The notes below the pieces were generated by a model. That model worked only from the letters and a program-made list of their open reading frames with translations, was not told where the DNA came from and made no database searches. Made by a program: the position numbers and the translations under genes. From a virus (lineage: Duplodnaviria; Caudoviricetes), in the IMG/VR virus record IMGVR_UViG_3300002180_000056, positions 1-26,577 of that record: a DNA stretch of 26,577 nucleotides; one strand, 5' to 3'. Numbering within the stretch: the stretch's first letter is position 1; each line of letters begins with the position of its first letter. Of the stretch, positions 12,398 through 26,577 are shown piece after piece.

Positions 12398-14431
12398 ATG
12401 GCATGGTCACCGATCAGCGGAACATTTATACAATACAGCGAAGATGACGTAGACGCGAGTAGCTACTACCTGAAGTTTTACGCCGCTGGAACTACTACGC
12501 CAATTGTAATGGCTACTGATAGCACGGGCGGCACCACACTTGATAAGTGCCAGCTAGACACCGACGGGATGCCGATAAACGGCTCAGGTGGTTATTTAAT
12601 ACCGTACATTGACCAAAAATATAAATTAGTAATCTATCGCAACTCAACCGATGCCGATGCAAATACATTTGCAAATGCGTATAAAGAGATTGACGATATT
12701 GATCCGTTTATTACCTCGGTATCGGCAACGCCTATCCTGGTTGCCACAGTTGCAGTTATGACAGCAGATACAACGGCCACTATCGGGGATTATTACCAGT
12801 GTGCTGATTACGATACAGGTAATGATGCAGGGGTTCTTATATTTGAAATGGTGGCCGTTGGTGGTACGGCGGATAATCTGGGAGCTTTGTTTGATCACGA
12901 CACACTAGCTTTGCAATGCAAGCGTATTTTTAATTCAGTTGTAAACATCAAAGAATTCGGCTACCCCGGTGATGGAACAGATGCAGCAGCAGCGATTACA
13001 GCAGCAATAGCAGCTAAAAACGAGCTTACAGCGGAAGGGTGCGATCAGATAGGACTTAGCTCAACAGTAACCGTAACAAAGCACACTACACTTGATTTGA
13101 CTAACGTGGGCGTAATTCCATTAGTTGACGTTGATATGTTCCACGTAAACGAAGGCGGTCAATTGAAAAACCTAGATGCGCTGACTAGTGGCATTACCTA
13201 CACAAGCGTGGTTTCAACTTTAAAGCCTGTTGCAAATATCAGAGGGGGGCAGTACCGAACGTGGTTGAAAAGCGCAGTTATAGAGCACGCATCGGGCGGA
13301 GCTGGAGACAGTGTGCTATTTGACGCTACGCTGTTCTATATTCAAGAATGCAACGCTACAGATGTCAGTGTGTACTGGGGCAATAAAGCCGTAGCTATGA
13401 CTGCGGGGGCCGGTAAGTATTGTAATGGTAATGTTGTGAATGGGCTAATCACTCACGACCCTGTTTACTCGATCTATGAAGCAGATACCACCGAGACCAT
13501 CCAGGGGAACGTCTACTCTAGTGTAATCCTAGAAGATAATCTTAATGGCGCAACAGTACAGCTTAATACGGGAGCAAAAGTTGACGGGCAATTGTGGGAT
13601 AGAGTTGCTGTTATATTTAAAGGCGACTTCAACGAAGTAACCTCGCCTATTGGACTATTTAATGATGAGCTTATTGATGAGGGCTATAACAACCGGATTC
13701 GCGGGCAAGACGTTGCTGCCTACGAGAACAAACGAACAATACTGAAGTTTAATGATTACCGGAATAATCTTGTTGGGCTACGTGGTCGCGGTGAGTACCG
13801 TGATGATTTCATGGCAGGTAAGCTGGGTAACGAGACATTAGTCAATGGAACTGGGACTACAGCTTTTCAAGCTATTGAGTACGGATCATCCGCAAAGGCT
13901 TACGCAGGAATGAGGTGTATACTCACTACCCTTACTACTGCTACAGATAGCATGGATATGAGATGGCAGGATACAGCACTGCGTACAGGCCATGACCCGA
14001 TATACCACTGCACTGCATATCTAAGTGAAACGGCGGATACAAAATACCAGTTTGGGTTCTATAGGGACTCAAACAACTATATTCTGTTTGAGTCAGACGT
14101 AACTGCCGGAACCATCACTCCGCGAGTAAAAGCTGGCGGGGTAGAGACGGCGGGCACAGCCGTATCGGTGACATTTGGTCGTGTTTTTTGGATGAGCATT
14201 GTGGTTACTAATGATGAGGTTATTTTCAACATCGGAGAGGCCGCTATCTCTAGTAATAATATGGGGGACGGTATTTATAATTTCTCCGATGAGCAGACAA
14301 TAACAACAAACATCCCGACCGCTGAGGTGTTGCAGCCAAGGACGTACGTTGAGACAGAAACAGCCGCAGCTAAACAGCTATCTGTGCTAGATGTTCATGT
14401 ATCTTGGTGTCATGGGTATCTAGTTCCGTAA
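12398..14431 (+). CDS. Tailspike / tail fibre (receptor-binding protein)
   Basis: N-terminal 'LKFYAAGTTTP' virion-binding domain, then 'VNIKEFG..GDGTD...AI.AAI' entry to a beta-helix; last gene of operon. Confidence 0.8.
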   Translation: MAWSPISGTFIQYSEDDVDASSYYLKFYAAGTTTPIVMATDSTGGTTLDKCQLDTDGMPINGSGGYLIPYIDQKYKLVIYRNSTDADANTFANAYKEIDDIDPFITSVSATPILVATVAVMTADTTATIGDYYQCADYDTGNDAGVLIFEMVAVGGTADNLGALFDHDTLALQCKRIFNSVVNIKEFGYPGDGTDAAAAITAAIAAKNELTAEGCDQIGLSSTVTVTKHTTLDLTNVGVIPLVDVDMFHVNEGGQLKNLDALTSGITYTSVVSTLKPVANIRGGQYRTWLKSAVIEHASGGAGDSVLFDATLFYIQECNATDVSVYWGNKAVAMTAGAGKYCNGNVVNGLITHDPVYSIYEADTTETIQGNVYSSVILEDNLNGATVQLNTGAKVDGQLWDRVAVIFKGDFNEVTSPIGLFNDELIDEGYNNRIRGQDVAAYENKRTILKFNDYRNNLVGLRGRGEYRDDFMAGKLGNETLVNGTGTTAFQAIEYGSSAKAYAGMRCILTTLTTATDSMDMRWQDTALRTGHDPIYHCTAYLSETADTKYQFGFYRDSNNYILFESDVTAGTITPRVKAGGVETAGTAVSVTFGRVFWMSIVVTNDEVIFNIGEAAISSNNMGDGIYNFSDEQTITTNIPTAEVLQPRTYVETETAAAKQLSVLDVHVSWCHGYLVP

Positions 14432-15433: not shown

Positions 15434-15520
15434 TTATTGTCCATGTTTACCCTTTAATATCCTAATATGCGGAAAGTGCGGAAAGTGCGGAATGTGTGCC
15501 GCTTATTACCGCTGTTATAG
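15434..15520 (+). other. Array-proximal attI-like / degenerate attC site, copy 1
   Basis: Near-identical to 22975-23052; ends in core GTTATAG (15514-15520); three TGCGGAA(A/T)G direct repeats; inverted repeat TAATATGCGG/CCGCTTATTA. Confidence 0.65.
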
Positions 15521-15739
15521 GTCAGCGCTCATATAAAACGTGTGTTTCATCGCTGCGCCGTACCCTATGTGAGCCATAATGTCGCCAGGCATAAACCACT
15601 CACAAATCCATCCCTTATATTGATACTGGTAAGAAGGCGAGTAGTATATGTATTTAGGTTCTTGATGGTGTTCTTCACAGTATTTATCCCACGCTTTTTG
15701 CGCAGATCCGTTCTTTCTTGGTCTTTCAAAATACTCCAT
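15515..15739 (-). CDS. Cassette A1 ORF, hypothetical
   Basis: 74 aa; TAA stop lies in the core site GTTA. Confidence 0.75.
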   Translation of the reverse strand: MEYFERPRKNGSAQKAWDKYCEEHHQEPKYIYYSPSYQYQYKGWICEWFMPGDIMAHIGYGAAMKHTFYMSADL

Positions 15740-15746
15740 AAGTCAC

Positions 15747-15808
15747 CTATAACAAGGGCGCTGAAATTCGACTCCGCTACGCTGCGCGATTTAGCTGAAG
15801 CGTTAGCT
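15747..15808 (+). repeat. attC site A1 (62 bp)
   Basis: CTATAAC...GTTAGCT imperfect palindrome; three differences from 23859-23919 between the cores. Confidence 0.9.
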
Positions 15809-16003
15809 GTCTAAAAGCGCCTTCAAGTAATAGATAGGAACCATATCAATCATGCCGTCACTTATACGAACAAATATTGCACATGTTCTTGAATCCCCTC
15901 CTTTCGTGTAGCCATCAATATATCCGGCATCAAACTCCTTCAGCTCAGTTTGATGTATATCCCTAGTTAATTGCGCTATGGTTTTTCCTTTTGGTATTTT
16001 CAT
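15803..16003 (-). CDS. Cassette A2 ORF, hypothetical (66 aa, start revised)
   Basis: ATG at 16003 preceded by GGAGG; stop in core site. Confidence 0.7.
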   Translation of the reverse strand: MKIPKGKTIAQLTRDIHQTELKEFDAGYIDGYTKGGDSRTCAIFVRISDGMIDMVPIYYLKALLDS

Positions 16004-16018
16004 TATCGTAGCCTCCAC

Positions 16019-16077
16019 AGCTAACAAGAAATTCAAGCCGACCTCGTACCTCGGCGGTTTAATATTGGGCGTTATAA
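16019..16077 (+). repeat. attC site A2 (59 bp)
   Basis: AGCTAAC AAGAA ATTCAAGCCGAC...GCGGTTTAAT ATTGGGC GTTATAA; aadA-type 59-base-element layout with unpaired C and A on the + strand. Confidence 0.95.
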
Positions 16078-16236
16078 ATCATCATGCGCCCTATACTTCT
16101 TGGCAATAAACGCCCGTTCTACATGTATCATCACCGCCGCCCGATCCTTTGCCGGAACCTGCGTTTCGATATAGTTCCGGCGCTCTTCTCTTGATTTTAG
16201 TTTAAGGCACTGTAGCGCGTAGTGCCTCGGCCACAT
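16072..16236 (-). CDS. Small phage protein, 54 aa (not in ORF track)
   Basis: MWPRHYALQCLKLKSREERRNYIETQVPAKDRAAVMIHVERAFIAKKYRAHDDL; GGAG RBS; stop lies in the last core site of array A. Confidence 0.75.
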   Translation of the reverse strand: MWPRHYALQCLKLKSREERRNYIETQVPAKDRAAVMIHVERAFIAKKYRAHDDL

Positions 16237-17841: not shown

Positions 17842-18389
17842 TTTACTTCTTCCCCTTTTGGTTTTCGCTGCCCCCACTGAAACCGAACCATCCCAGTAGT
17901 ATCTTTTGCGGCCAGCCAGTTTAATTTGTTTTCTGTGAACTCTGAATACCAGTGCCATTCCTTCAACTTTAGGTCGTATGACTGCTTAGGCTTCTTATTG
18001 CCGTCCATGTACCATTCGTTGTCTTTTAGCTTCAACTCTATAACTGGGTAGTCGTAAAGCTCCCTACCTATACCCCAATTAAAGCAAGCCCGCTTGAATG
18101 AGTCACTAGCCAGCCCTTTAGCTGCCTCGGTATTTGATTCTGTGCCAGTATCTTCTTTCTGCACCCACTCTTTTTTTTCATCGCACCATATCGATACCAC
18201 GCAATTATGGTTGCCGTTTGTGTGCCTGCGCTGCCAGTTTGTCGGCCCTACAGCCTCATCTAAGCGTTGCTGGTCAACCCTAGCGTCTTTGTAAGCCAGT
18301 ATAACTGCGTACCCGCTCTTCTTAATCCGCTGAACTCTAAAGTCTATCTGGTTGGCTGATAGCGGATCAGTTAAGTTTTCTATTGCCAT
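17838..18389 (-). CDS. Rad52/22-family (Sak-like) single-strand annealing protein
   Basis: 'LAYKDARVDQQRLD..VGP.NWQ', 'KGLASDSFKRACFNWGIGRELYDYP'. Confidence 0.9.
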   Translation of the reverse strand: MAIENLTDPLSANQIDFRVQRIKKSGYAVILAYKDARVDQQRLDEAVGPTNWQRRHTNGNHNCVVSIWCDEKKEWVQKEDTGTESNTEAAKGLASDSFKRACFNWGIGRELYDYPVIELKLKDNEWYMDGNKKPKQSYDLKLKEWHWYSEFTENKLNWLAAKDTTGMVRFQWGQRKPKGEEVK

Positions 18390-19191
18390 TGTAAAGTTCC
18401 GTTATTGTCTTTTGCGTTTTTCTTTGTTCGGCCTCGTACTGGTGGCTGTATCCATCGTTGTACGGTTTAGATTTTTCGGTATGCGGTATCCCGTCTTTGC
18501 AATCCCTTATGCCTTGTAGATAATCCTCTAGATCGCTCATTTGTAATGCCCTTTTTTCGTCTTTTTTGATTAAACCGTTGGTGGTGTGCTCTAAATTATT
18601 ATCAATCACATATTGATCGTAGGCTTTTGCTGCTTCTAGCTTATCTTTATGCCGACCAAGATAGATGGTCTTGCTATTTACAGTGATTTCTGCTTTCCAC
18701 TTGCTGCTTGACTTGTCAAAAAAAACCCCGCGATATCCGCTGGTGTTGGTTGCAATCAATATCCTTTTGTTTCGCTGTTGAACAGATTGCGTTGTAAACC
18801 TGCAATTATCAGGATCGTAATTTCCGTCATTGTTGATTCGATCAATTGTTAGGTCGTCGTTGTAGCCGTTAGATTCAGCCCATCCACGAAACGCTGCGAA
18901 ATCATACCATTCATCACAAATCTTGATTCCACGCCCTCCGTGGCTTTTATAAGACCGATGGTTTTCATTGTTGCAGCGCTGCTTAATGTTACTCCATGTT
19001 TTATACAGTCGTGTTCCGACCCCGCCGTGGGTGATGTTGACACACGACTTACATGATTCCGATATAAGCCCGCTATGAATCCTAACCTCGCAGCTTGTCG
19101 TGCAAACCGGACAGAGGAAAAGGCCATACCTAGACTTTTGCTTAGATGTCGCGGTTGCATATCGCATGTCTAGCTTTTTGATTAGTTGCAT
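18367..19191 (-). CDS. HNH-AP2 homing endonuclease, in frame with a 57 aa downstream ORF
   Basis: 'GGRGIKICDEW', 'LTIDRINNDGNY.P.NCR', AP2-type 'NTSGYRGV...W.A.I....YLG.....EAAKAYD'. Confidence 0.88.
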   Translation of the reverse strand: MQLIKKLDMRYATATSKQKSRYGLFLCPVCTTSCEVRIHSGLISESCKSCVNITHGGVGTRLYKTWSNIKQRCNNENHRSYKSHGGRGIKICDEWYDFAAFRGWAESNGYNDDLTIDRINNDGNYDPDNCRFTTQSVQQRNKRILIATNTSGYRGVFFDKSSSKWKAEITVNSKTIYLGRHKDKLEAAKAYDQYVIDNNLEHTTNGLIKKDEKRALQMSDLEDYLQGIRDCKDGIPHTEKSKPYNDGYSHQYEAEQRKTQKTITELYNGNRKLN

Positions 19192-20374: not shown

Positions 20375-20567
20375 TGTTAGATCGGATTGGTATATCGTTA
20401 TACTTAAAATAACTAGACCTCATGTAATAGTCACACGTAACCACGCCTTTGATAGTGACTGGCTTGAATATAGAATATGACTGCACGCAACCTGGCGTAG
20501 CGTTAAACCGATAGCAGGTTTTGGATAGCTCGCAGTCTTTGTTTTCGCACATTGAAATATCAGGCAT
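20364..20567 (-). CDS. Small Cys-rich phage protein
   Basis: 'MPDISMC...C.L...CYRF.A.P...QSY'; AAGGAG RBS. Confidence 0.7.
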   Translation of the reverse strand: MPDISMCENKDCELSKTCYRFNATPGCVQSYSIFKPVTIKGVVTCDYYMRSSYFKYNDIPIRSNIDT

Positions 20568-20759
20568 GGTTTGGCTCCTTAGTGATTATTACCGCCCTTT
20601 CATTTGATCCCCGTAGGTAGTCAAATTACTAAGCTCCCCTAGTCCTGTAAACAGGCTTCAAATAGATAACGGACAGTTTGGCGGTGTTGTCCCGTCTAGT
20701 GTTATCAGCTTTTTGTCAGCTTTTTTGAACGGCGGCCACTAACTAGGGCTATGTTTGCT

Positions 20760-20788
20760 TTGATCTTTTACGATTGGCGCATTATACT
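20760..20788 (+). promoter_or_regulatory. Sigma70-like promoter, antisense to the early arm
   Basis: TTGATC-17 bp-TATACT. Confidence 0.6.
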
Positions 20789-20794
20789 AACGGC

Positions 20795-20931
20795 CATTGA
20801 CGCTAGGAGGTTCGGTCCTTCGTCAAACAGGTTGTCTTGTAAACAACCGAGATAGAAGTTTAACCCAACCGGCTGAGATATGCCAATTAGACTTTTATCG
20901 CATCTAAGCCAGTTTAATCGCTGGCTTTTTT
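20795..20931 (+). ncRNA. Putative antisense small RNA of about 135 nt
   Basis: Bounded by promoter and terminator; hairpins at 20797-20826 and 20830-20848; no ORF. Confidence 0.5.
20906..20931 (+). terminator. Rho-independent terminator
   Basis: AAGCCAG-TTTAATCG-CTGGCTT followed by a T run. Confidence 0.7.
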
Positions 20932-21035
20932 GTGTCTCGTTATTATGGTTTGCCCCTCCAGCCCTTCCCTGGATACGTTTTCGACGCTATTGTAGCCAAT
21001 AGACTTACGCGCTATTCGGGCCTTAATCTTTGCTT

Positions 21036-21236
21036 CTATATGTTCGGCTCATGGAACAGATTGTTGTTTTTAAGTTTAATGATTTCGTCCGGCGTAACCC
21101 CAAGCTTTATAAGCTCAAGAACTGGGATACCTTCGCTTCCTTTATCAAACCCCTCCATGCCGCTAAAATAGCTTACTAGGCCGTTTTTGTCAGTTATAGC
21201 GCCCGTTTCTTTATCGTATTCAAATATTGTTTTCAT
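21036..21236 (-). CDS. Hypothetical protein, paralogue of cassette ORF 25419-25619
   Basis: Both 66 aa; share Y...TGAITD.NG and G.T...II.LK. Confidence 0.75.
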   Translation of the reverse strand: MKTIFEYDKETGAITDKNGLVSYFSGMEGFDKGSEGIPVLELIKLGVTPDEIIKLKNNNLFHEPNI

Positions 21237-21385
21237 TCAGTTATATCCTCTATTTTGTCAGCCAACGGCTTATCTGGCCTATCCGCACAAAACTCACAGC
21301 CTGGATTACCGCACTGCGGCTCAGTCCACTCATTAGTATCATCATCATAATAAGCATCGTACTTTTCACTTCGTTTGATTGTCAT
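21233..21385 (-). CDS. Small Cys-containing protein, 50 aa (not in ORF track)
   Basis: MTIKRSEKYDAYYDDDTNEWTEPQCGNPGCEFCADRPDKPLADKIEDITE; ATGA overlap. Confidence 0.7.
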   Translation of the reverse strand: MTIKRSEKYDAYYDDDTNEWTEPQCGNPGCEFCADRPDKPLADKIEDITE

Positions 21386-21553
21386 TTAACTATCCCTCTC
21401 TTCAAGTAGCTCTACAATCCGCGCTAAGTGGTAAAACAAAATACAAGCACCAGTAACAGCGAGTAGAACTAAAGATTCTAGTTGTCCATCAACAAATATA
21501 TTTAACGCTGAAACGGCAACAGCCAAAATAATCCATAATGCTTTAGTTTTCAT
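21386..21553 (-). CDS. Small membrane protein, 55 aa (not in ORF track)
   Basis: MKTKALWIILAVAVSALNIFVDGQLESLVLLAVTGACILFYHLARIVELLEERDS; GGAGG RBS. Confidence 0.7.
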   Translation of the reverse strand: MKTKALWIILAVAVSALNIFVDGQLESLVLLAVTGACILFYHLARIVELLEERDS

Positions 21554-21713
21554 TAATCACCTCCACATCGTCCTTAAAGATGATATTGATATGTCCCGCT
21601 GGCTCCCTAGCCCAAAAAAACTCACTGCATTCCCTTTCTACTTCAACGGTTTTACCAAGCATCTTGGCGTACCACGTATGATTGTACTTGCTCTTTTTTA
21701 TTCGTACTTTCAC
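21543..21713 (-). CDS. Hypothetical protein, 56 aa (not in ORF track)
   Basis: GTG start overlapping the HNH stop; MKVRIKKSKYNHTWYAKMLGK...WAREPAGHINIIFKDD. Confidence 0.65.
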   Translation of the reverse strand: MKVRIKKSKYNHTWYAKMLGKTVEVERECSEFFWAREPAGHINIIFKDDVEVINEN

Positions 21714-22375
21714 AGTCTATCCAAAGAATTAATTAATCCGTTTGTAGTGTGCTCTAGGTTATTGTCGATGACGTAAGCGTCATAGGTTTTGGCGGCTTCT
21801 AGGGCTTTCTCAAAATAGCCGATATGGATCACCTTGCTATCAACACTGATTTGAACGCGCCATTTATTTTGTGGCTTGTCAAAGCTTACTCCGCGATAAC
21901 CGCTTGTATTATTAGCCCTTAATCGCCTAGTGTTTCTGGATTGAACCGACTGCGTGGTAAGCCTGCAATTGCCTGGGCAGTAGTCACCATCGTTATCAAT
22001 ACGATCAATTTTAAGGTTGTCTAAATAACCATTAGCTAAAGACCAGTCACGGAACAGGTCGAAATTGATCCATTCATCACAAACTTTTATTCCACGACCG
22101 CCATAACAACTATAATCAGAGTTGTTTACGTTGTTGCATCGTTGATTCATACCCTTCCATATTTTATATAACCTAGTGCCAGTTCCTCCGTGTTTTGAGA
22201 AACGCTTACCAGTAGCAATCGCAGCGCACGGCTTGCATGATTTCGCTCTAAGCCCACTATGAATAACAACTTCCACGCTTGTCGTGCAATCTGAGCAAAG
22301 AAATAAACCATAACGACGCTTTTGCGCGCTTAATTCTGTCGGGAAACGCATGTCGAGCTTTTTGATTAATTGCAT
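21710..22375 (-). CDS. HNH-AP2 homing endonuclease
   Basis: 'YGGRGIKVCDEW', 'IDRIDNDGDY.PGNCR', 'NNTSGYRGV'; paralogue of 18367-19191. Confidence 0.9.
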   Translation of the reverse strand: MQLIKKLDMRFPTELSAQKRRYGLFLCSDCTTSVEVVIHSGLRAKSCKPCAAIATGKRFSKHGGTGTRLYKIWKGMNQRCNNVNNSDYSCYGGRGIKVCDEWINFDLFRDWSLANGYLDNLKIDRIDNDGDYCPGNCRLTTQSVQSRNTRRLRANNTSGYRGVSFDKPQNKWRVQISVDSKVIHIGYFEKALEAAKTYDAYVIDNNLEHTTNGLINSLDRL

Positions 22376-22384
22376 TTGAATAAT

Positions 22385-22481
22385 CTCCAGTCACGGATTA
22401 ATCAGTCGAAGTGTTGCGCCAATGGGTGACTGAATTCCCATGTTTCGGCCTGCATTGCCTAGGCGCACAACCATTATAGCA
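22385..22481 (-). ncRNA. Structured leader with extended -10 promoter (c4-antisense-like)
   Basis: TGCTATAAT; closing stem TGCGCC/GGCGCA; hairpin loop TCAGTCA(C) complementary to two downstream sites, one overlapping the GGAG RBS. Confidence 0.55.
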
Positions 22482-22483
22482 GC

Positions 22484-22960
22484 CTATTCAGCATCAGAAA
22501 ACGCTCGAAGCGCGATTCTCACCCCTTTGCTGCGATTCCCTTTGCCAATCTCTGTCGCTAGTTTAGCGTCACTATCCGCCATGATGATGTTGTGGGGGAA
22601 CATTGCATCACCCCTATTCAATACCGGCTTGTGCTTCTTGGCTGTTACTTTACGCTGGAAAACTTCCGTAATGTAATTTTCTATATATTCTTTAAGCGTA
22701 CCATGCTTTAGCTTTTTCATCTCAACTCTAGGCTTAAATACAAAGCCATCGAAGTCAGGGTATTGATGCTTGTTGGCTTCAATGTAATTGTTTAGATACC
22801 CCTCAAGAAACTCAATTACCTCTACAGCAGTGGCCCTGTCGTAAATAGGATATTTACCTTCTGTATTGGCTAGGTACGCCATCACTCTATAATCCAGCTT
22901 GATGCCGGTCTCTTTCTCAAACTGCCTTTTGAAGTCAGGCATTGCTTCATGTTTCATCAT
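22484..22960 (-). CDS. Hypothetical protein, possible C-terminal DNA-binding module
   Basis: 158 aa; basic stretch followed by 'LATEIGKGNRSKGVRIAL' (ribbon-helix-helix-like, inference). Confidence 0.55.
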   Translation of the reverse strand: MMKHEAMPDFKRQFEKETGIKLDYRVMAYLANTEGKYPIYDRATAVEVIEFLEGYLNNYIEANKHQYPDFDGFVFKPRVEMKKLKHGTLKEYIENYITEVFQRKVTAKKHKPVLNRGDAMFPHNIIMADSDAKLATEIGKGNRSKGVRIALRAFSDAE

Positions 22961-22974
22961 TCTGTATTACCTCG

Positions 22975-23052
22975 TTATTTTCCATGTTTTGGCTTTAATA
23001 TCCTAATATGCGGAAAGTGCGGAATGTGTGCCGCTTATTACCGCTGTTATAT
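22975..23052 (+). other. Array-proximal attI-like / degenerate attC site, copy 2
   Basis: Matches 15434-15520 apart from 4 substitutions at the left end, one fewer 9 bp repeat and the last core base; ends GTTATAT (23046-23052). Confidence 0.65.
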
Positions 23053-23463
23053 GGCTGCCACTCCTAATAATCCAGCGCCTAAACTACCGAAACCTTGACG
23101 CATCGTTGTGTTCATTGTTGCCGCCTGTCTTTGCAATTCTACTAGCCTCCTTTGCTCTGAAAAAACATCATAATTAACAGCTGGGCCATCCTTTATTATG
23201 CCAACCCCTTTCATGGCATTTACTAGTAAATCGGCCTCGGTCTGCTCTCTAACCATATTCTTTAATTTGTTGCGTTCTGTTTCTATTTTGCAAGCCGCTT
23301 CTTTTATCCTGTCCACCTCTTTGTCTAAAACGGCTACGCGATCAAGTAAATCAGCATTATTGCCATTAGCATCGTTTATTTGTTCACTTAGCTCATCGTT
23401 ACTTTTTGTTAGCCGTTTTACCTCAGCTTTAATCTCTCTCTTTCCTTTAAAATACATAATCAT
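23047..23463 (-). CDS. Cassette B1 ORF, coiled-coil protein
   Basis: 138 aa; stop in core site. Confidence 0.75.
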   Translation of the reverse strand: MIMYFKGKREIKAEVKRLTKSNDELSEQINDANGNNADLLDRVAVLDKEVDRIKEAACKIETERNKLKNMVREQTEADLLVNAMKGVGIIKDGPAVNYDVFSEQRRLVELQRQAATMNTTMRQGFGSLGAGLLGVAAI

Positions 23464-23471
23464 ATCCCGCC

Positions 23472-23534
23472 ATATAACAAGGTGTTGAAAAATGGACGGG
23501 CAAAAGCGCCCGCCTTTTAACTTAAGCGTTATAC
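23472..23534 (+). repeat. attC site B1 (63 bp)
   Basis: ATATAAC...GGACGGGCAAAAGCGCCCGCC...GTTATAC. Confidence 0.9.
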
Positions 23535-23834
23535 GGCTTCGCCGCAGTATGAAACAGAAAGCCCACTACTACCCTCAACCTTGCATTGTGCATCATTGAA
23601 TAGTGTTGTTATGTCTGTGCTTTTTGGTACTGCGTCATACCAGTAAGGGCTGAACGGTGGTCGCCATCGATCCCGATCGATAACAATTGGACAAGAGGGG
23701 ATATGAGTTTCTTTAACACCAAACAGCGAATCAAGCTGCTCGTACAGCTCCCTGGCTTCGGTAATGGTCAGCTCAACCTCATTGCCGCTTTTGGTTTCCA
23801 GTGCGATCTTTGTTAGTTTAAGTTTCTTGCTCAT
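23529..23834 (-). CDS. Cassette B2 ORF, hypothetical (101 aa, start revised)
   Basis: MSKKLKLTK... with GGAG RBS; the longer ORF-track start runs through the attC into the next cassette. Confidence 0.75.
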   Translation of the reverse strand: MSKKLKLTKIALETKSGNEVELTITEARELYEQLDSLFGVKETHIPSCPIVIDRDRWRPPFSPYWYDAVPKSTDITTLFNDAQCKVEGSSGLSVSYCGEAV

Positions 23835-23858
23835 TTTCGTGTCTCCAAGTTTTGCGCC

Positions 23859-23919
23859 GTATAACAAGGCGCTAAAATTCGACTCCGCTACGCTGCGCGA
23901 TTTAGCTAAAGCGTTATAT
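23859..23919 (+). repeat. attC site B2 (61 bp)
   Basis: GTATAAC...GTTATAT; near-duplicate of attC A1. Confidence 0.9.
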
Positions 23920-24135
23920 GGCTTCAATTTGCACATTTTTAGCCCATGATGTACCGTCAATAGCCATTGAAGTTATGAAATATAAATTACTATCTACGTG
24001 TAAAATTATCTCTTCTTTATCGGTTCCTGCATTAAGTATTTGCTCTGCGTTATAAGAAATGCGTTCGCCTTCGTAAGTGACTTTCAGCTTGTCGCCTTCT
24101 TTAATCTGTCCTGCATATAACAAGTCATTCAACAT
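23914..24135 (-). CDS. Cassette B3 ORF, hypothetical
   Basis: 73 aa; ATG and GAGG RBS lie inside attC B3. Confidence 0.75.
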   Translation of the reverse strand: MLNDLLYAGQIKEGDKLKVTYEGERISYNAEQILNAGTDKEEIILHVDSNLYFITSMAIDGTSWAKNVQIEAI

Positions 24136-24187
24136 CGCTCGTTCCTCGCTTGGACGGCTTCGCCGCCAGTTAATTAAGGCGTTATAT
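24115..24187 (+). repeat. attC site B3 (73 bp)
   Basis: ATATAAC AAGTC ATTCAAC...GTTAAT TAAGGC GTTATAT. Confidence 0.9.
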
Positions 24188-24412
24188 TGCCTTGCTGCCT
24201 AGCCAGTTATTTTTTAGCCCCAAGTACCAGCTATACGTATAAAATATTGTTAACATTAAAATACCCCACTGCTCTGCGGTATACGCTGAATAAAACCAAA
24301 ACGGCTGGCCCGCCAACCCAAACAAGCAGGCATATTTTTTCCACGCCTCCTTGCTTTGCTGTGTAAGCCAAATTGCCAAACCTCCGGTTATTGCTATTGC
24401 TAGTTGCTCCAA
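24182..24412 (-). CDS. Cassette B4 ORF, small 3-TM membrane protein (PnuC/SemiSWEET-like half transporter, tentative)
   Basis: 'FGLAGQPFWFY......QWGI', three hydrophobic segments; TTG start with AAGGAG. Confidence 0.6.
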   Translation of the reverse strand: MEQLAIAITGGLAIWLTQQSKEAWKKYACLFGLAGQPFWFYSAYTAEQWGILMLTIFYTYSWYLGLKNNWLGSKAI

Positions 24413-24430
24413 AACCTTCTCCTTAATTTA

Positions 24431-24490
24431 ATATAACAAGGTTCATCAAGCCGATTCGCTACACTCACGGCTTATTAACGGGCGTTAGGC
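24431..24490 (+). repeat. attC site B4 (60 bp)
   Basis: ATATAAC...ATCAAGCCG...CGGCTTAT...GTTAGGC. Confidence 0.9.
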
Positions 24491-24616
24491 GCCTAAAAAT
24501 AGGCCGATATTCAATCCAGCAATAATCCCGTTAATAGCGTCAATGGGGCTGCCACCAAAACCGGCTAATGCTAAATAGGCAAAAACAACACCAACACCCA
24601 AGTTTAAAAACTTCAT
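24485..24616 (-). CDS. Cassette B5 ORF, 43 aa hydrophobic peptide (not in ORF track)
   Basis: MKFLNLGVGVVFAYLALAGFGGSPIDAINGIIAGLNIGLFLGA; GAGG RBS; stop in core site. Confidence 0.75.
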   Translation of the reverse strand: MKFLNLGVGVVFAYLALAGFGGSPIDAINGIIAGLNIGLFLGA

Positions 24617-24638
24617 TTTTTACCTCATGCGCCGTAGC

Positions 24639-24698
24639 GCCTAACAAGAAATTCAAGCCGACCTCGCAAGCTCGGCGGTTTAATATTGGGCGTTATGT
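24639..24698 (+). repeat. attC site B5 (60 bp)
   Basis: GCCTAAC...GTTATGT; identical to attC A2 between the cores except at the apical loop. Confidence 0.95.
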
Positions 24699-25028
24699 TG
24701 CTTTAATCATAAAGCGCGGCTTTTCACATAAAGCGTTTATATTCACTAGCTGCTTCAATAGGTGCGCTCTCACCGGATCTTCGTGGTATTGCCTTTCCGC
24801 CTTTCTAATCTCGTTAGGGCTTGGTTCAATATTCCACCCACACTCAAATAATTCAGCCTTAATTTTTTTCAGCAAAAAAGCCTCATACTCACGTAGCATT
24901 GCTTCTGCTTGTTCAATTAATAGTCTATGCTCCGGTTCAACGTATGGTGGCAACATAACAAGGCGTTCGTTCAGACCTGCTACTGCGTCGGTTTTTTCTG
25001 GTTCGGCGGTTTGCTTATCTTCTTTCAT
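24693..25028 (-). CDS. Cassette B6 ORF, hypothetical
   Basis: 111 aa; start and GAGG RBS inside long attC B6. Confidence 0.7.
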   Translation of the reverse strand: MKEDKQTAEPEKTDAVAGLNERLVMLPPYVEPEHRLLIEQAEAMLREYEAFLLKKIKAELFECGWNIEPSPNEIRKAERQYHEDPVRAHLLKQLVNINALCEKPRFMIKAT

Positions 25029-25080
25029 TTTCCAAAATCCTCATGTAATTTCCGCAGGCTGCACAACTAAAGCGTTATGC
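24953..25080 (+). repeat. attC site B6 (128 bp, long variable terminal region)
   Basis: ACATAAC AAGGC GTT(C)GTTCAG(A)CCTGC...GCAGGCTGCACAAC TAAAGC GTTATGC. Confidence 0.85.
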
Positions 25081-25383
25081 GCCAATAGCGCCAATTTTAT
25101 CAATGTAATATTGGACTCTTTCAGTTGTTAAATAACCAACAACAGAATCACCGCTATCTTCTTCATCAATAAATTTTTCATCACTAGGCATTATTTCAAA
25201 CAACCCCTCATCACCACCATAGGAATATTGTCCTCTTATAATACTTAATGAATGCCCGTTTTTAAAATACACTCTGGCTCTAGCCATGCCATTAATTGGG
25301 TCGCTGACATCATCCACATGGTCAATAGTGTCTACGCATAACAATGCGTTTAACTCGGATTCGTCACTCTTCGCTTCGCTCAT
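25075..25383 (-). CDS. Cassette B7 ORF, conserved phage-type hypothetical protein
   Basis: 'F.NG..LSII.G.YSYGGDEGLFEI....V.GYLT'; start inside attC B7. Confidence 0.75.
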   Translation of the reverse strand: MSEAKSDESELNALLCVDTIDHVDDVSDPINGMARARVYFKNGHSLSIIRGQYSYGGDEGLFEIMPSDEKFIDEEDSGDSVVGYLTTERVQYYIDKIGAIGA

Positions 25384-25416
25384 TATTCCTCTCCGGTTAA
25401 CTAAATTGCGTTATAT
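25336..25416 (+). repeat. attC site B7 (81 bp)
   Basis: GCATAAC AATGC GTTTAACTCGG...CCGGTTAAC TAAATTGC GTTATAT. Confidence 0.85.
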
Positions 25417-25418
25417 GG

Positions 25419-25619
25419 CTAAATTATTTCCCTACTCTTCAGCGCAATAATATCTTCAGTTGTAAAACCTGCATCCTTCAGCTTTACAATTCCTTCCACT
25501 CCTTTGCCGTTTTGTGCTTTTGTTTCGTGTTGCTCTAGTCCAGGCCAGATGCAAATCATAATGCCGTTGTTGTCTGTAATAGCCCCTGTAGATTGCTCAT
25601 AATTTAGTTCAATTTTCAT
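25419..25619 (-). CDS. Cassette B8 ORF, paralogue of 21036-21236
   Basis: 66 aa; AAGGAG RBS. Confidence 0.75.
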   Translation of the reverse strand: MKIELNYEQSTGAITDNNGIMICIWPGLEQHETKAQNGKGVEGIVKLKDAGFTTEDIIALKSREII

Positions 25620-25640
25620 TCCTGTTTCTCCTTAATCGCC

Positions 25641-25702
25641 TTATAACAAGGCGTTCAAAATCCGACCGCAAAAAGCGCGACGGTTTAACTAAAGCGTTAA
25701 AC
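25641..25702 (+). repeat. attC site B8 (62 bp)
   Basis: TTATAAC AAGGC GTTCAAA...GGTTTAAC TAAAGC GTTAAAC. Confidence 0.9.
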
Positions 25703-26203
25703 ATTACGTTCTAAATAAACTCCGCGATCGCTCATCCGCCCCAAAGCTTCCGAGCATTCATTTCCGAATGCGAACATCACGGTACCGGCAGCACTTCGGC
25801 TTTGTTTGTGCTGGTTTTCTTTGCCTGGTATGAACTGGATCCGCCCTCCTAGAAATAGCATAGATGCGCATGATTTCATTGCCTCCTGGCACCAGGCTGC
25901 GTCTGTCCGGCTAAATACGAGAGCTACCCCGTTACCATGCGCTATCATTCTGCGGATCCAAAAAGGCGTCTCTTTGCCATACGGCGGATTAAGCCATACC
26001 CGACCGAGCCACTCTTTGCTAAGCCCATCATCAAACACAGTGAGCTTGGTTTTAGCTGGTACCGCCGTCTCCATATCGTGTGGTGATGATGGATCCAGAT
26101 CGAAAGTTATCGCCAACTCTTCAAAAATCCATGCAGGCGTGTACCACTCCGCGCTCTTGTGAGTATTTTTAGCTGCTGATTTATTTGTAAAAAGTCCGTC
26201 CAT
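25697..26203 (-). CDS. Cassette B9 ORF, phage-type DNA N6-adenine methyltransferase
   Basis: 'EWYTP', 'FDLDP', 'DDGL...W.GRVWLNPPYG', 'SRTD..W', 'GRIQF'. Confidence 0.9.
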   Translation of the reverse strand: MDGLFTNKSAAKNTHKSAEWYTPAWIFEELAITFDLDPSSPHDMETAVPAKTKLTVFDDGLSKEWLGRVWLNPPYGKETPFWIRRMIAHGNGVALVFSRTDAAWCQEAMKSCASMLFLGGRIQFIPGKENQHKQSRSAAGTVMFAFGNECSEALGRMSDRGVYLERNV

Positions 26204-26215
26204 TCGTCACCAAAT

Positions 26216-26270
26216 GTTTAACAAGTCGTCAATCGGACGGCTACGCCGCCGCTTACTTTAGGCGTTACTC
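26216..26270 (+). repeat. attC site B9 (55 bp), last of array
   Basis: GTTTAAC AAGTC GT(C)AATCGG(A)CGGC TAC GCCGCCGCTTAC TTTAGGC GTTACTC. Confidence 0.9.
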
Positions 26271-26468
26271 AAACAACCCTCTAGCCTTACCGCACTCATT
26301 ACACTGCTTTGATGCTGAGTGACTCATAGCCACCAGAATCCAGATAGGAACCCAAATACCTACCGTAATAACGGATAGGATAAGGTGTAGGATATGGCTG
26401 GTGCTTTATGCCACATGTGCAGTGATTTTATTGCAGTGTCGGCACTTTTTCATAATCATGTTAGACAT
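26265..26468 (-). pseudogene. Zinc-ribbon plus transmembrane small protein with an internal stop
   Basis: MSNMIMKKCRHCNKITAHVA*STSHILHLILSVITVGIWVPIWILVAMSHSASKQCNECGKARGLFE; in-frame TAA at 26406-26408; GAGG RBS. Confidence 0.7.
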
Positions 26469-26505
26469 GGGTGTATCCTCGTTGTTTTCGTTTGTCTTGC
26501 TATTC

Positions 26506-26550
26506 AATATACACGCATATTTATACAATACAACCATTTTGCGTGTTTAT
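26506..26550 (-). promoter_or_regulatory. Leftward sigma70-like promoter/operator reading into array B
   Basis: TTGTAT (26528-26533)-16 bp-TATATT (26506-26511); overlapped by inverted ACACGCA/TGCGTGT. Confidence 0.55.
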
Positions 26551-26577
26551 TTTATATTCCTTCGCTTTCGCGTTGGT

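Follow-up and report, generated by a model that had tools for sequence, protein, structure and literature searches.

The B8 cassette and its phage

The stretch of DNA analysed here (the window) is a viral record of 26,577 bases that matches part of the 39,596-base record G001 with 100% identity. The latter is a marine phage, complete at 39.6 kb according to CheckV, and the window is its reverse complement taken across the record ends. The structural genes of the phage occupy the plus strand up to position 14431, and the minus strand from 14533 to the end carries early, recombination and accessory genes, including those for NinG/Rap, Gam, a single-strand annealing recombination protein (SSAP) of the Erf/Rad52 type, two HNH endonucleases and a Dam methylase. 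The two HNH endonuclease genes (18367-19191 and 21710-22375; PHROG 374) are themselves paralogues, with 64% identity over 215 aa in the proteins and patches of about 75% identity in the DNA. Scans of the window for Rfam families and tRNAs returned no match, and a promoter scan remained at chance level, with 14 found versus 12.9 expected.

The cassette designated B8 is 286 nt long (25411..25696) and is delimited by two G|TT crossover points, one following 25410 and the other 25696. The first is in the R' core of the attC before it and the second belongs to its own attC, and the cassette so defined is the unit that the initial annotation had placed at 25410-25702. Its gene (25419..25619, minus strand) encodes a 66-aa protein belonging to a small-protein family found only in phages. 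A TAG of its own, placed 8 nt within the border of the cassette, terminates the gene, and a ribosome-binding site, also its own, lies between the attC and the start codon; this arrangement fits the uptake of a whole gene together with its signals. The attC of B8 (25644..25699, plus strand; 56 nt, TAACAAG...GCGTTA) lies antisense to the gene, at its 5' side. Two covariance models were used to score such sites, R1 built from phage sites only and R2 built more broadly from 60 sites that include bacterial ones; this attC reaches 67.5 bits with R1 (E 4e-15) and 61.6 bits with R2. The other border of B8 is formed by the attC of the neighbouring cassette B7 (25339..25413, plus strand; 75 nt), which lies outside the R1 training set and scores 29.6 bits with that model (E 2e-5) and 44.9 bits with R2. 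This site also contains the ribosome-binding site and start codon of the gene at 25075-25383.

attC arrays and their antisense cargo

The pattern TAACAAG-N30-60-GCGTTA occurs nine times in the window, always on the plus strand, versus 0 expected, and a looser pattern adds two long attC of 122 and 75 nt, giving 11 sites that all share this strand. Nine of them follow a leader in array B (22975..26274, plus strand), with starts at 23475, 23862, 24118, 24434, 24642, 24956, 25339, 25644 and 26219. Array A (15434..16081, plus strand) has the same leader and two attC, starting at 15750 and 16022, and the cargo of both arrays lies entirely on the minus strand. Three further sites make up array C in the part of G001 outside the window (locus label L027), such that the phage holds 14 attC in three arrays.

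These sites have the features of integron cassette borders. The cores TAAC (R'') and GTTA (R') are invariant in all nine aligned attC, as cassette core sites require, and in a hairpin drawn by hand 84.3% of the cells are paired, with 8 of 15 pairs changed on both sides. The covariation score was reached by none of 500 shuffles, and sliding the partners by 1-3 columns lowered the pairing to 30-45%, in keeping with a genuine imperfect hairpin; by eye, the aligned sites have a longer left than right arm. With filters off, R1 recovered all nine attC on which it was trained and also the two long ones that were new to it (E about 2e-5), and its other eight matches in the window had E values of 2.6 or worse. 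Minimum-free-energy folding did not separate the attC from background (z-scores of -0.04 to -1.5). A generic attC detector based on core complementarity and folding recovered only 2 of the 11 known sites and was dropped.

Each of the three arrays opens with the leader, which measures about 90 nt. The copy in array B (22975..23058, plus strand) is 91-94% identical to 15434-15526 in array A, and the third copy lies at 9338-9397 of L027. It contains short direct repeats (GCGGAAAGT / GCGGAATGT) and is a candidate attI-like site. No match to a tyrosine recombinase (PF00589) was found in complete G001 or in complete G002, an unrelated phage described below, in a search whose control succeeded in 14 of 14 genomes. 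A complete integron, with intI and an adjacent attI, is thus not present, and the arrays of 2, 9 and 3 attC without an integrase are accordingly CALINs.

Cassettes usually, though not universally, have the ORF on the top strand of the attC and the attC on the 3' side of the gene. The window departs from this layout throughout, as all 11 cargo genes lie opposite to the attC strand and have the attC 5' of the gene. Antisense cargo is also the rule in array C, for most ORFs of G002 and for the ORFs at 13 sites in four further phages. The sites moreover provide codons. In 10 of the 11 cassettes the gene stops at a TAA that is complementary to the TTA of the G|TTA core, and this TTA makes up bases 1-3 of the cassette (stops at 15515, 15803, 23047, 23529, 23914, 24182, 24485, 24693, 25075 and 25697), and hence the ORF ends exactly at the cassette border; B8, with its TAG, is the sole exception. 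Three of the 11 attC (24118-24184, 24956-25077 and 25339-25413) contain the start codon of their gene, and an attC of array C (L027 9980-10058) likewise contains a ribosome-binding site and start codon. In the attC of cassette B1, the variable middle (23494-23514) reads on the coding (minus) strand as a GC-rich hairpin followed by a run of T, which looks like an intrinsic terminator within the array.

Within G001, pairs of attC that are 82-91% identical sit on unrelated cargo (A1 and B2, for instance, at 88%). The attC of B3 and C2 are 91-96% identical, and since these near-identical sites contain the start codon, both proteins begin with MLNDLL and are unrelated in the remainder. Near-identical attC on unrelated cargo are a poor fit to simple transfer of whole cassettes in which attC and gene travel together. 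Cassettes B6 and C2 also have in common the first 18 nt past the crossover (24693-24710 and L027 9772-9789), encoding a C-terminal MIKAT and the stop, and the remainder of each gene and the attC differ; this is mosaicism finer than whole cassettes.

Related sites in other phages, in bacteria and in community data

The attC of this phage have close counterparts elsewhere. R1, although trained on phage sites only, finds co-oriented attC arrays at three gammaproteobacterial loci, with 7 sites in a Neptuniibacter chromosome, 4 in a Halioglobus MAG and 5 in a Pleionea genome, which places the phage attC in the bacterial integron attC family. The ORFs of these three arrays share the strand of the attC, and each stops within an attC or shortly before it. 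With R1 the bacterial attC reach 23-49 bits versus 30-78 bits for phage sites, and given these lower scores none of the three bacteria is identified as the host.

Among phages, the complete and unrelated 52.8-kb G002 (L086-L088; G003 is a 100% identical fragment of it) has 16 attC matches, of the type seen in G001, in several arrays. The DNA that it has in common with G001 amounts to 18 matches of 52-133 nt at 76-98% identity, all of them on attC. The leader appears to be absent from G002, as judged by the lack of a BLASTN match between the two genomes. No cargo protein is shared between them and no member of the B8 family occurs in G002, the only real protein match being NinG at 35%. One array of G002 lies just upstream of the NinG homologue, and array A is likewise located upstream of NinG/Rap in G001. 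A survey of phages with a related SSAP (79 loci, 1.07 Mb) returned 13 attC matches in four loci (L157, L159, L161 and L165), with 2-5 matches each, antisense to the ORFs on either side. Within this abundant phage group, attC arrays are hence sporadic. In a phage collection, neither megablast with 20700-26577 nor tblastn with the two 66-aa proteins discussed below found a match, and a search for relatives of the phage by way of the 158-aa gene adjoining array B returned only the phage itself.

One public sequencing run that contains the stretch (X1) was available as contigs only; it may be the source sample and is thus not an independent one. In this run, 13 bins that overlap attC or the leader have depths of 28-226, with 10 of the 13 at 70 or above, and exact contigs over cargo genes have depths of about 20. 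Fourteen joints, mostly from attC to attC, are read as other cassettes in other genomes and not as deletions in this phage. The B8 cassette itself is on a single 895-nt contig with a depth of 19.9, which equals the depth of the phage. No alternative junction was seen at its borders, an absence that proves nothing in a set of contigs, and no event that involves the B8 cassette itself was observed in X1.

These data bear on the possibility that no integrase uses the attC-like sites at all. They might instead be homology linkers for the Erf/Rad52-type protein, or hairpins that act in expression at the RNA or DNA level, such that the word cassette would describe a layout but not a mechanism and B8 would have arrived by ordinary phage mosaicism. 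Such a proposal suits a complete phage that has no integrase but does have an Erf/Rad52-type SSAP and a Gam homologue. It would also account for identical or near-identical attC with unrelated cargo, the 18 nt that B6 and C2 share past the crossover point, the provision of starts for 3 and stops for 10 of the 11 cargo genes, and the terminator-like attC of B1. It is nevertheless unlikely. The stems are kept by compensatory changes around invariant TAAC and GTTA, and a model made from the phage sites finds canonical bacterial integron arrays. Signs that bear on recombination at G|TT are present as well: the likeness of the leader copies ends at GCTG|TTAT, and X1 contigs diverge directly past GCGTTA at 23916 (five contigs) and at 24696 (two contigs). 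Finally, phage attC have been shown to be substrates of IntI1, as Qi et al. (2023; PMC9892861) found five of six attC from virulent phages to recombine with attI1 under this integrase.

The free-standing homologue of B8

A second gene for a 66-aa protein of the same family lies at 21036..21236 on the minus strand. Both ORFs exist as first described, with the lengths and the N- and C-terminal sequences originally quoted. The upstream neighbour of the second gene (21233..21385, minus strand) encodes 50 aa, and its TGA overlaps the ATG of the free-standing copy in a 4-nt ATGA. This overlap indicates translational coupling, as had been proposed. On the 3' side is a spacer of 468 nt (20568..21035) with a hairpin at 20906-20927.

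The absence of an attC from this copy, which the initial annotation had also asserted, is borne out by every scan. R1 with filters off gave nothing at E ≤ 10 between 20710 and 23469, and the match nearest to the free copy (20660-20709, minus strand) reached only 10 bits (E 2.6). R2 gave no match at E ≤ 1 besides the 11 known sites, and none near the free copy. Weight matrices for the left and right halves of the site, applied to 20500-21500, gave a top score of 7.4 bits, compared with 13-28 bits for true sites and a background elsewhere of up to about 12. Neither a site nor a half-site, and thus no degenerate attC, flanks 21036-21236, the 3' spacer included, and no half-made or decaying attC was seen at either copy. 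At its 3' end (…ACATATAG) the free copy loosely resembles the complement of R' (CCATATAAC), a resemblance that was rejected as it is unsupported by both models and by the weight matrices.

The free copy is not a conserved backbone gene, as no family member occurs in any of the 79 loci of phages with a related SSAP. One X1 contig, with a depth of 8.5, joins 20933 to 21382 and skips both the free copy and its upstream gene, and others join 21689 to 22567, skipping the HNH endonuclease gene at 21710-22375. These joins suggest strain variants in which the modules are missing or replaced.

The similarity of the two proteins is significant. BLASTP aligns them with 25 of 68 columns identical (37%; 36.6 bits, E 3e-10), and both match family profiles from which they had been left out: a profile of 12 relatives of the free copy gives B8 38.1 bits (best of 1000 shuffles, 9.9), and one of 11 relatives of B8 gives the free copy 32.9 bits (best shuffle, 6.9). 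The conserved N-terminus MK...Y..(E/S)TGAITD.NG is common to both. Among 15 proteins compared, namely 14 cargo proteins and the free copy, B8 and the free copy are the sole pair below E 0.3.

The two are nonetheless members of different subfamilies. B8-type proteins have a longer middle segment that is absent from the other subfamily, and the nearest relatives of each copy are found elsewhere, P0002 (79%) and P0043 (55%) for B8, and, for the free copy, P0004 and P0005 (67-68%) out of its relatives P0004-P0008. In an unrooted tree of 163 rows, weakly resolved with 5 of 160 inner branches well supported, the free copy ranks 116th by path distance from B8. Composition does not separate the copies, with GC contents of 0.388 versus 0.398, and neither GC nor GC3 distinguishes B8 from the free copy or from the phage backbone.

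The two copies are therefore true but distant homologues of different subfamilies, which we read as either old paralogues or independently acquired relatives. One could suppose instead that this phage duplicated its free gene at 21036-21236 and that the second copy gained its flanking attC and then diverged. The occurrence of both in one genome, their equal length of 66 aa, their shared N-terminus and their standing as the sole similar pair among the 15 proteins are all compatible with such an event. We consider it most improbable, however, as the identity is only 37%, 115 of the 161 other tree rows lie nearer to B8 than its partner does, 22 of the 25 family members with read context score higher against B8 than the partner does, each copy has closer relatives elsewhere (at 79% and 67-68%), and the longer middle segment is restricted to B8-type proteins. 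The low identity, the different subfamilies and the closer relatives elsewhere argue against a recent duplication or an in-place conversion. The initial suggestion that a conversion is in progress here, with the pair as a possible glimpse of cassette genesis, is thus unsupported, given the 37% identity, the split between subfamilies and the lack of any intermediate form.

Distribution, context and function of the family

A profile search of 1.84 billion representatives retrieved 322 proteins, themselves cluster representatives, at E ≤ 0.001, of which 56 reached E ≤ 1e-10. Nearly all members are 58-85 aa in length, and the family was seen only in viral and metagenome contigs. A pattern scan of 185,579 species genomes, a scan of limited reach, found no relative, and the nearest Atlas clusters are 98-100% viral, which serves as a lead only. 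Several long repeat proteins that match the family profile were set aside as low-complexity or repeat sequences from mixed Pfam families and as functionally uninformative.

Genomic context was read for 25 other family genes, encoding 20 distinct proteins; 16 of the loci came from scans with an alignment of the whole family and nine from an alignment of the B8 subfamily. The count covers neither P0002, which is on a contig of 1063 nt, nor P0043 and the other nearest B8-type proteins, which together with P0083, P0050 and P0082 fall at 47-55% identity to B8. R1 was applied with filters off to all 25 loci and R2 to 20, leaving out L013, L017, L032, L036 and L126, which are duplicates or near-copies. 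At 24 of the 25 loci no attC match was found within the 1.8-12 kb around the family gene by these models, which represent one type of attC. The family genes mostly overlap or abut their neighbours, and most loci leave no room for an attC.

The exception is L119, from the complete 43.9-kb phage G004 with terminal repeats. Here a single attC (2645-2717; 43 bits with R2), the solitary one of this genome, lies 275 nt upstream of a B8-type gene and antisense to it, and contains the start codon of an intervening gene for a cysteine-rich protein of 59-64 aa. A second attC beside the L119 gene (2862-2950, minus strand) was picked by eye and rejected, as it scores only about 6 bits with R2.

The function of the protein can only be guessed. 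B8 has no Pfam or PHROG family, and an AlphaFold model (pLDDT 81.3, pTM 0.41) consists of three short strands and two helices and has no PDB fold match at E ≤ 0.001. One match in BFVD, a viral protein of 67 aa with 38% identity, is likely a family member. The first cassette of array C (L027 9429-9695) encodes a Tad2-like protein (Thoeris anti-defence 2; PF11195, E 1e-22), cassette B9 encodes the Dam methylase (PF05869), and a free-standing Lar restriction-alleviation gene (PF14354) is located at L027 13144-13347, in the part of G001 outside the window. From the neighbouring cargo and Lar only, our guess is that the family provides an early accessory or counter-defence / host-takeover factor.

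Origin of the B8 cassette

The free-standing state in 24 of 25 loci makes the attC-borne state of B8 most simply a derived one, and the combination of an ordinarily free-standing family with one member in a cassette means that a phage gene lineage and an attC were joined at some time. As the tree has no root and little resolution, only parsimony gives the direction from gene to cassette. The opposite course would be that the family began as cassette genes and that the free copies, including 21036-21236, arose by loss of attC. The solitary antisense attC 275 nt upstream of the B8-type gene in G004 and the sporadic occurrence of attC among related phages, in 4 of 79 loci, would agree with such a past. 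This course is decidedly unlikely, given that 24 of 25 other loci have no attC match and most of them no room for one, that no half-site remnant persists at the free copy and the second site considered at L119 has only some 6 bits, and that the pattern scan, within its limited reach, detected no family member in bacterial genomes, where cassettes are stored.

The reading that we favour, with a probability of roughly 0.55, is that the two genes are distant homologues from two subfamilies of phage proteins of 60-70 aa, that B8 resides in a genuine attC-bounded cassette, and that this cassette was probably imported ready-made and was not made from its partner in this phage. On this reading the ancestor of B8 would have been a free-standing phage gene that later gained an attC 5' of its start. 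The finished cassette probably entered array B by site-specific recombination at attC, a reaction predicted to be catalysed by an integron integrase of the host. The nearest free-standing relative with read context is 44-50% identical to B8, which is too distant to reconstruct the conversion event. The initial proposal that ordinary phage genes are converted into cassettes is thus supported in part, in that the family of B8 consists of such genes. Together, B8 and the free copy show that phage genes do end up as cassettes, and are not a snapshot of cassette birth.

Comparison with known systems

Sedentary chromosomal integrons have homogeneous attC and small genes mostly of unknown function, and similar attC on unrelated cargo are the classical argument for the local making of cassettes. 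The phage arrays resemble them in having similar attC on unrelated cargo and in that one covariance model recognises both. They differ in that bacterial ORFs lie on the attC strand, whereas those of the phage are on the other strand and begin in or just past the attC. The moron and nin-region modules of tailed phages are classically exchanged at short conserved or random sequences. Both family copies are like these modules as small early accessory genes in variable regions, although one of the two copies is, unlike such modules, bounded by structured attC. The group IIC-attC intron model of cassette formation addresses how a gene acquires an attC, but it places the attC 3' of the gene in the sense orientation, in contrast to the 5' and antisense attC of this phage.

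Phage CALINs, a methylase among their cargo and the recombination of phage attC by IntI1 are already known (Qi et al. 2023; PMC9892861). That study describes CALINs in phage genomes with cargo that includes a DNA methyltransferase, and the arrays discussed here are similar in having several attC in a phage that lacks intI and a methyltransferase as cargo. They are unlike the CALINs of that account in comprising 14 attC in three arrays that each have a conserved leader, in the antisense orientation of all cargo with start and stop codons within the sites, and in the free-standing homologue of one cargo gene in the same phage. Two of the earlier phage CALINs are described there as oriented “in the same direction”, and a term search of the paper found no mention of antisense or opposite orientation, of paralogues or of the origin of cassettes. 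A limited literature search found no paper on free-standing homologues of phage cassette genes.

Implications for cassette formation and phage gene exchange

The way in which integron cassettes come about has long been an open question. The occurrence of a normally free-standing phage family as cargo suggests that phage genomes supply cassettes, or at the least use them, and do not merely carry bacterial ones. The distance between the two copies within this phage is too great for the conversion step to be seen, and the useful comparison is that between B8 and its 55-79% relatives. The antisense attC, the codons within the sites, the attC common to unrelated phages and the counter-defence cargo bear on how accessory and anti-defence genes are exchanged.

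A broader and tentative proposal is that marine phages maintain their own mirror-image pool of cassettes, in which early genes are fitted with host-type attC that stand 5' of the gene and antisense to it. Such a pool might include the B8 family, the Tad2-like anti-Thoeris gene and the Dam methylase, combined with a small set of attC, and each attC would supply the stop of the previous gene and sometimes the start of the next. The near-identical attC on unrelated cargo could then be the footprint of an ongoing birth of cassettes in which an attC is copied and attached. Should this possible view of the pool hold in all its parts, the B8 family, some members of which are free and some attC-borne, would lend itself to reconstructing the birth of a single cassette.
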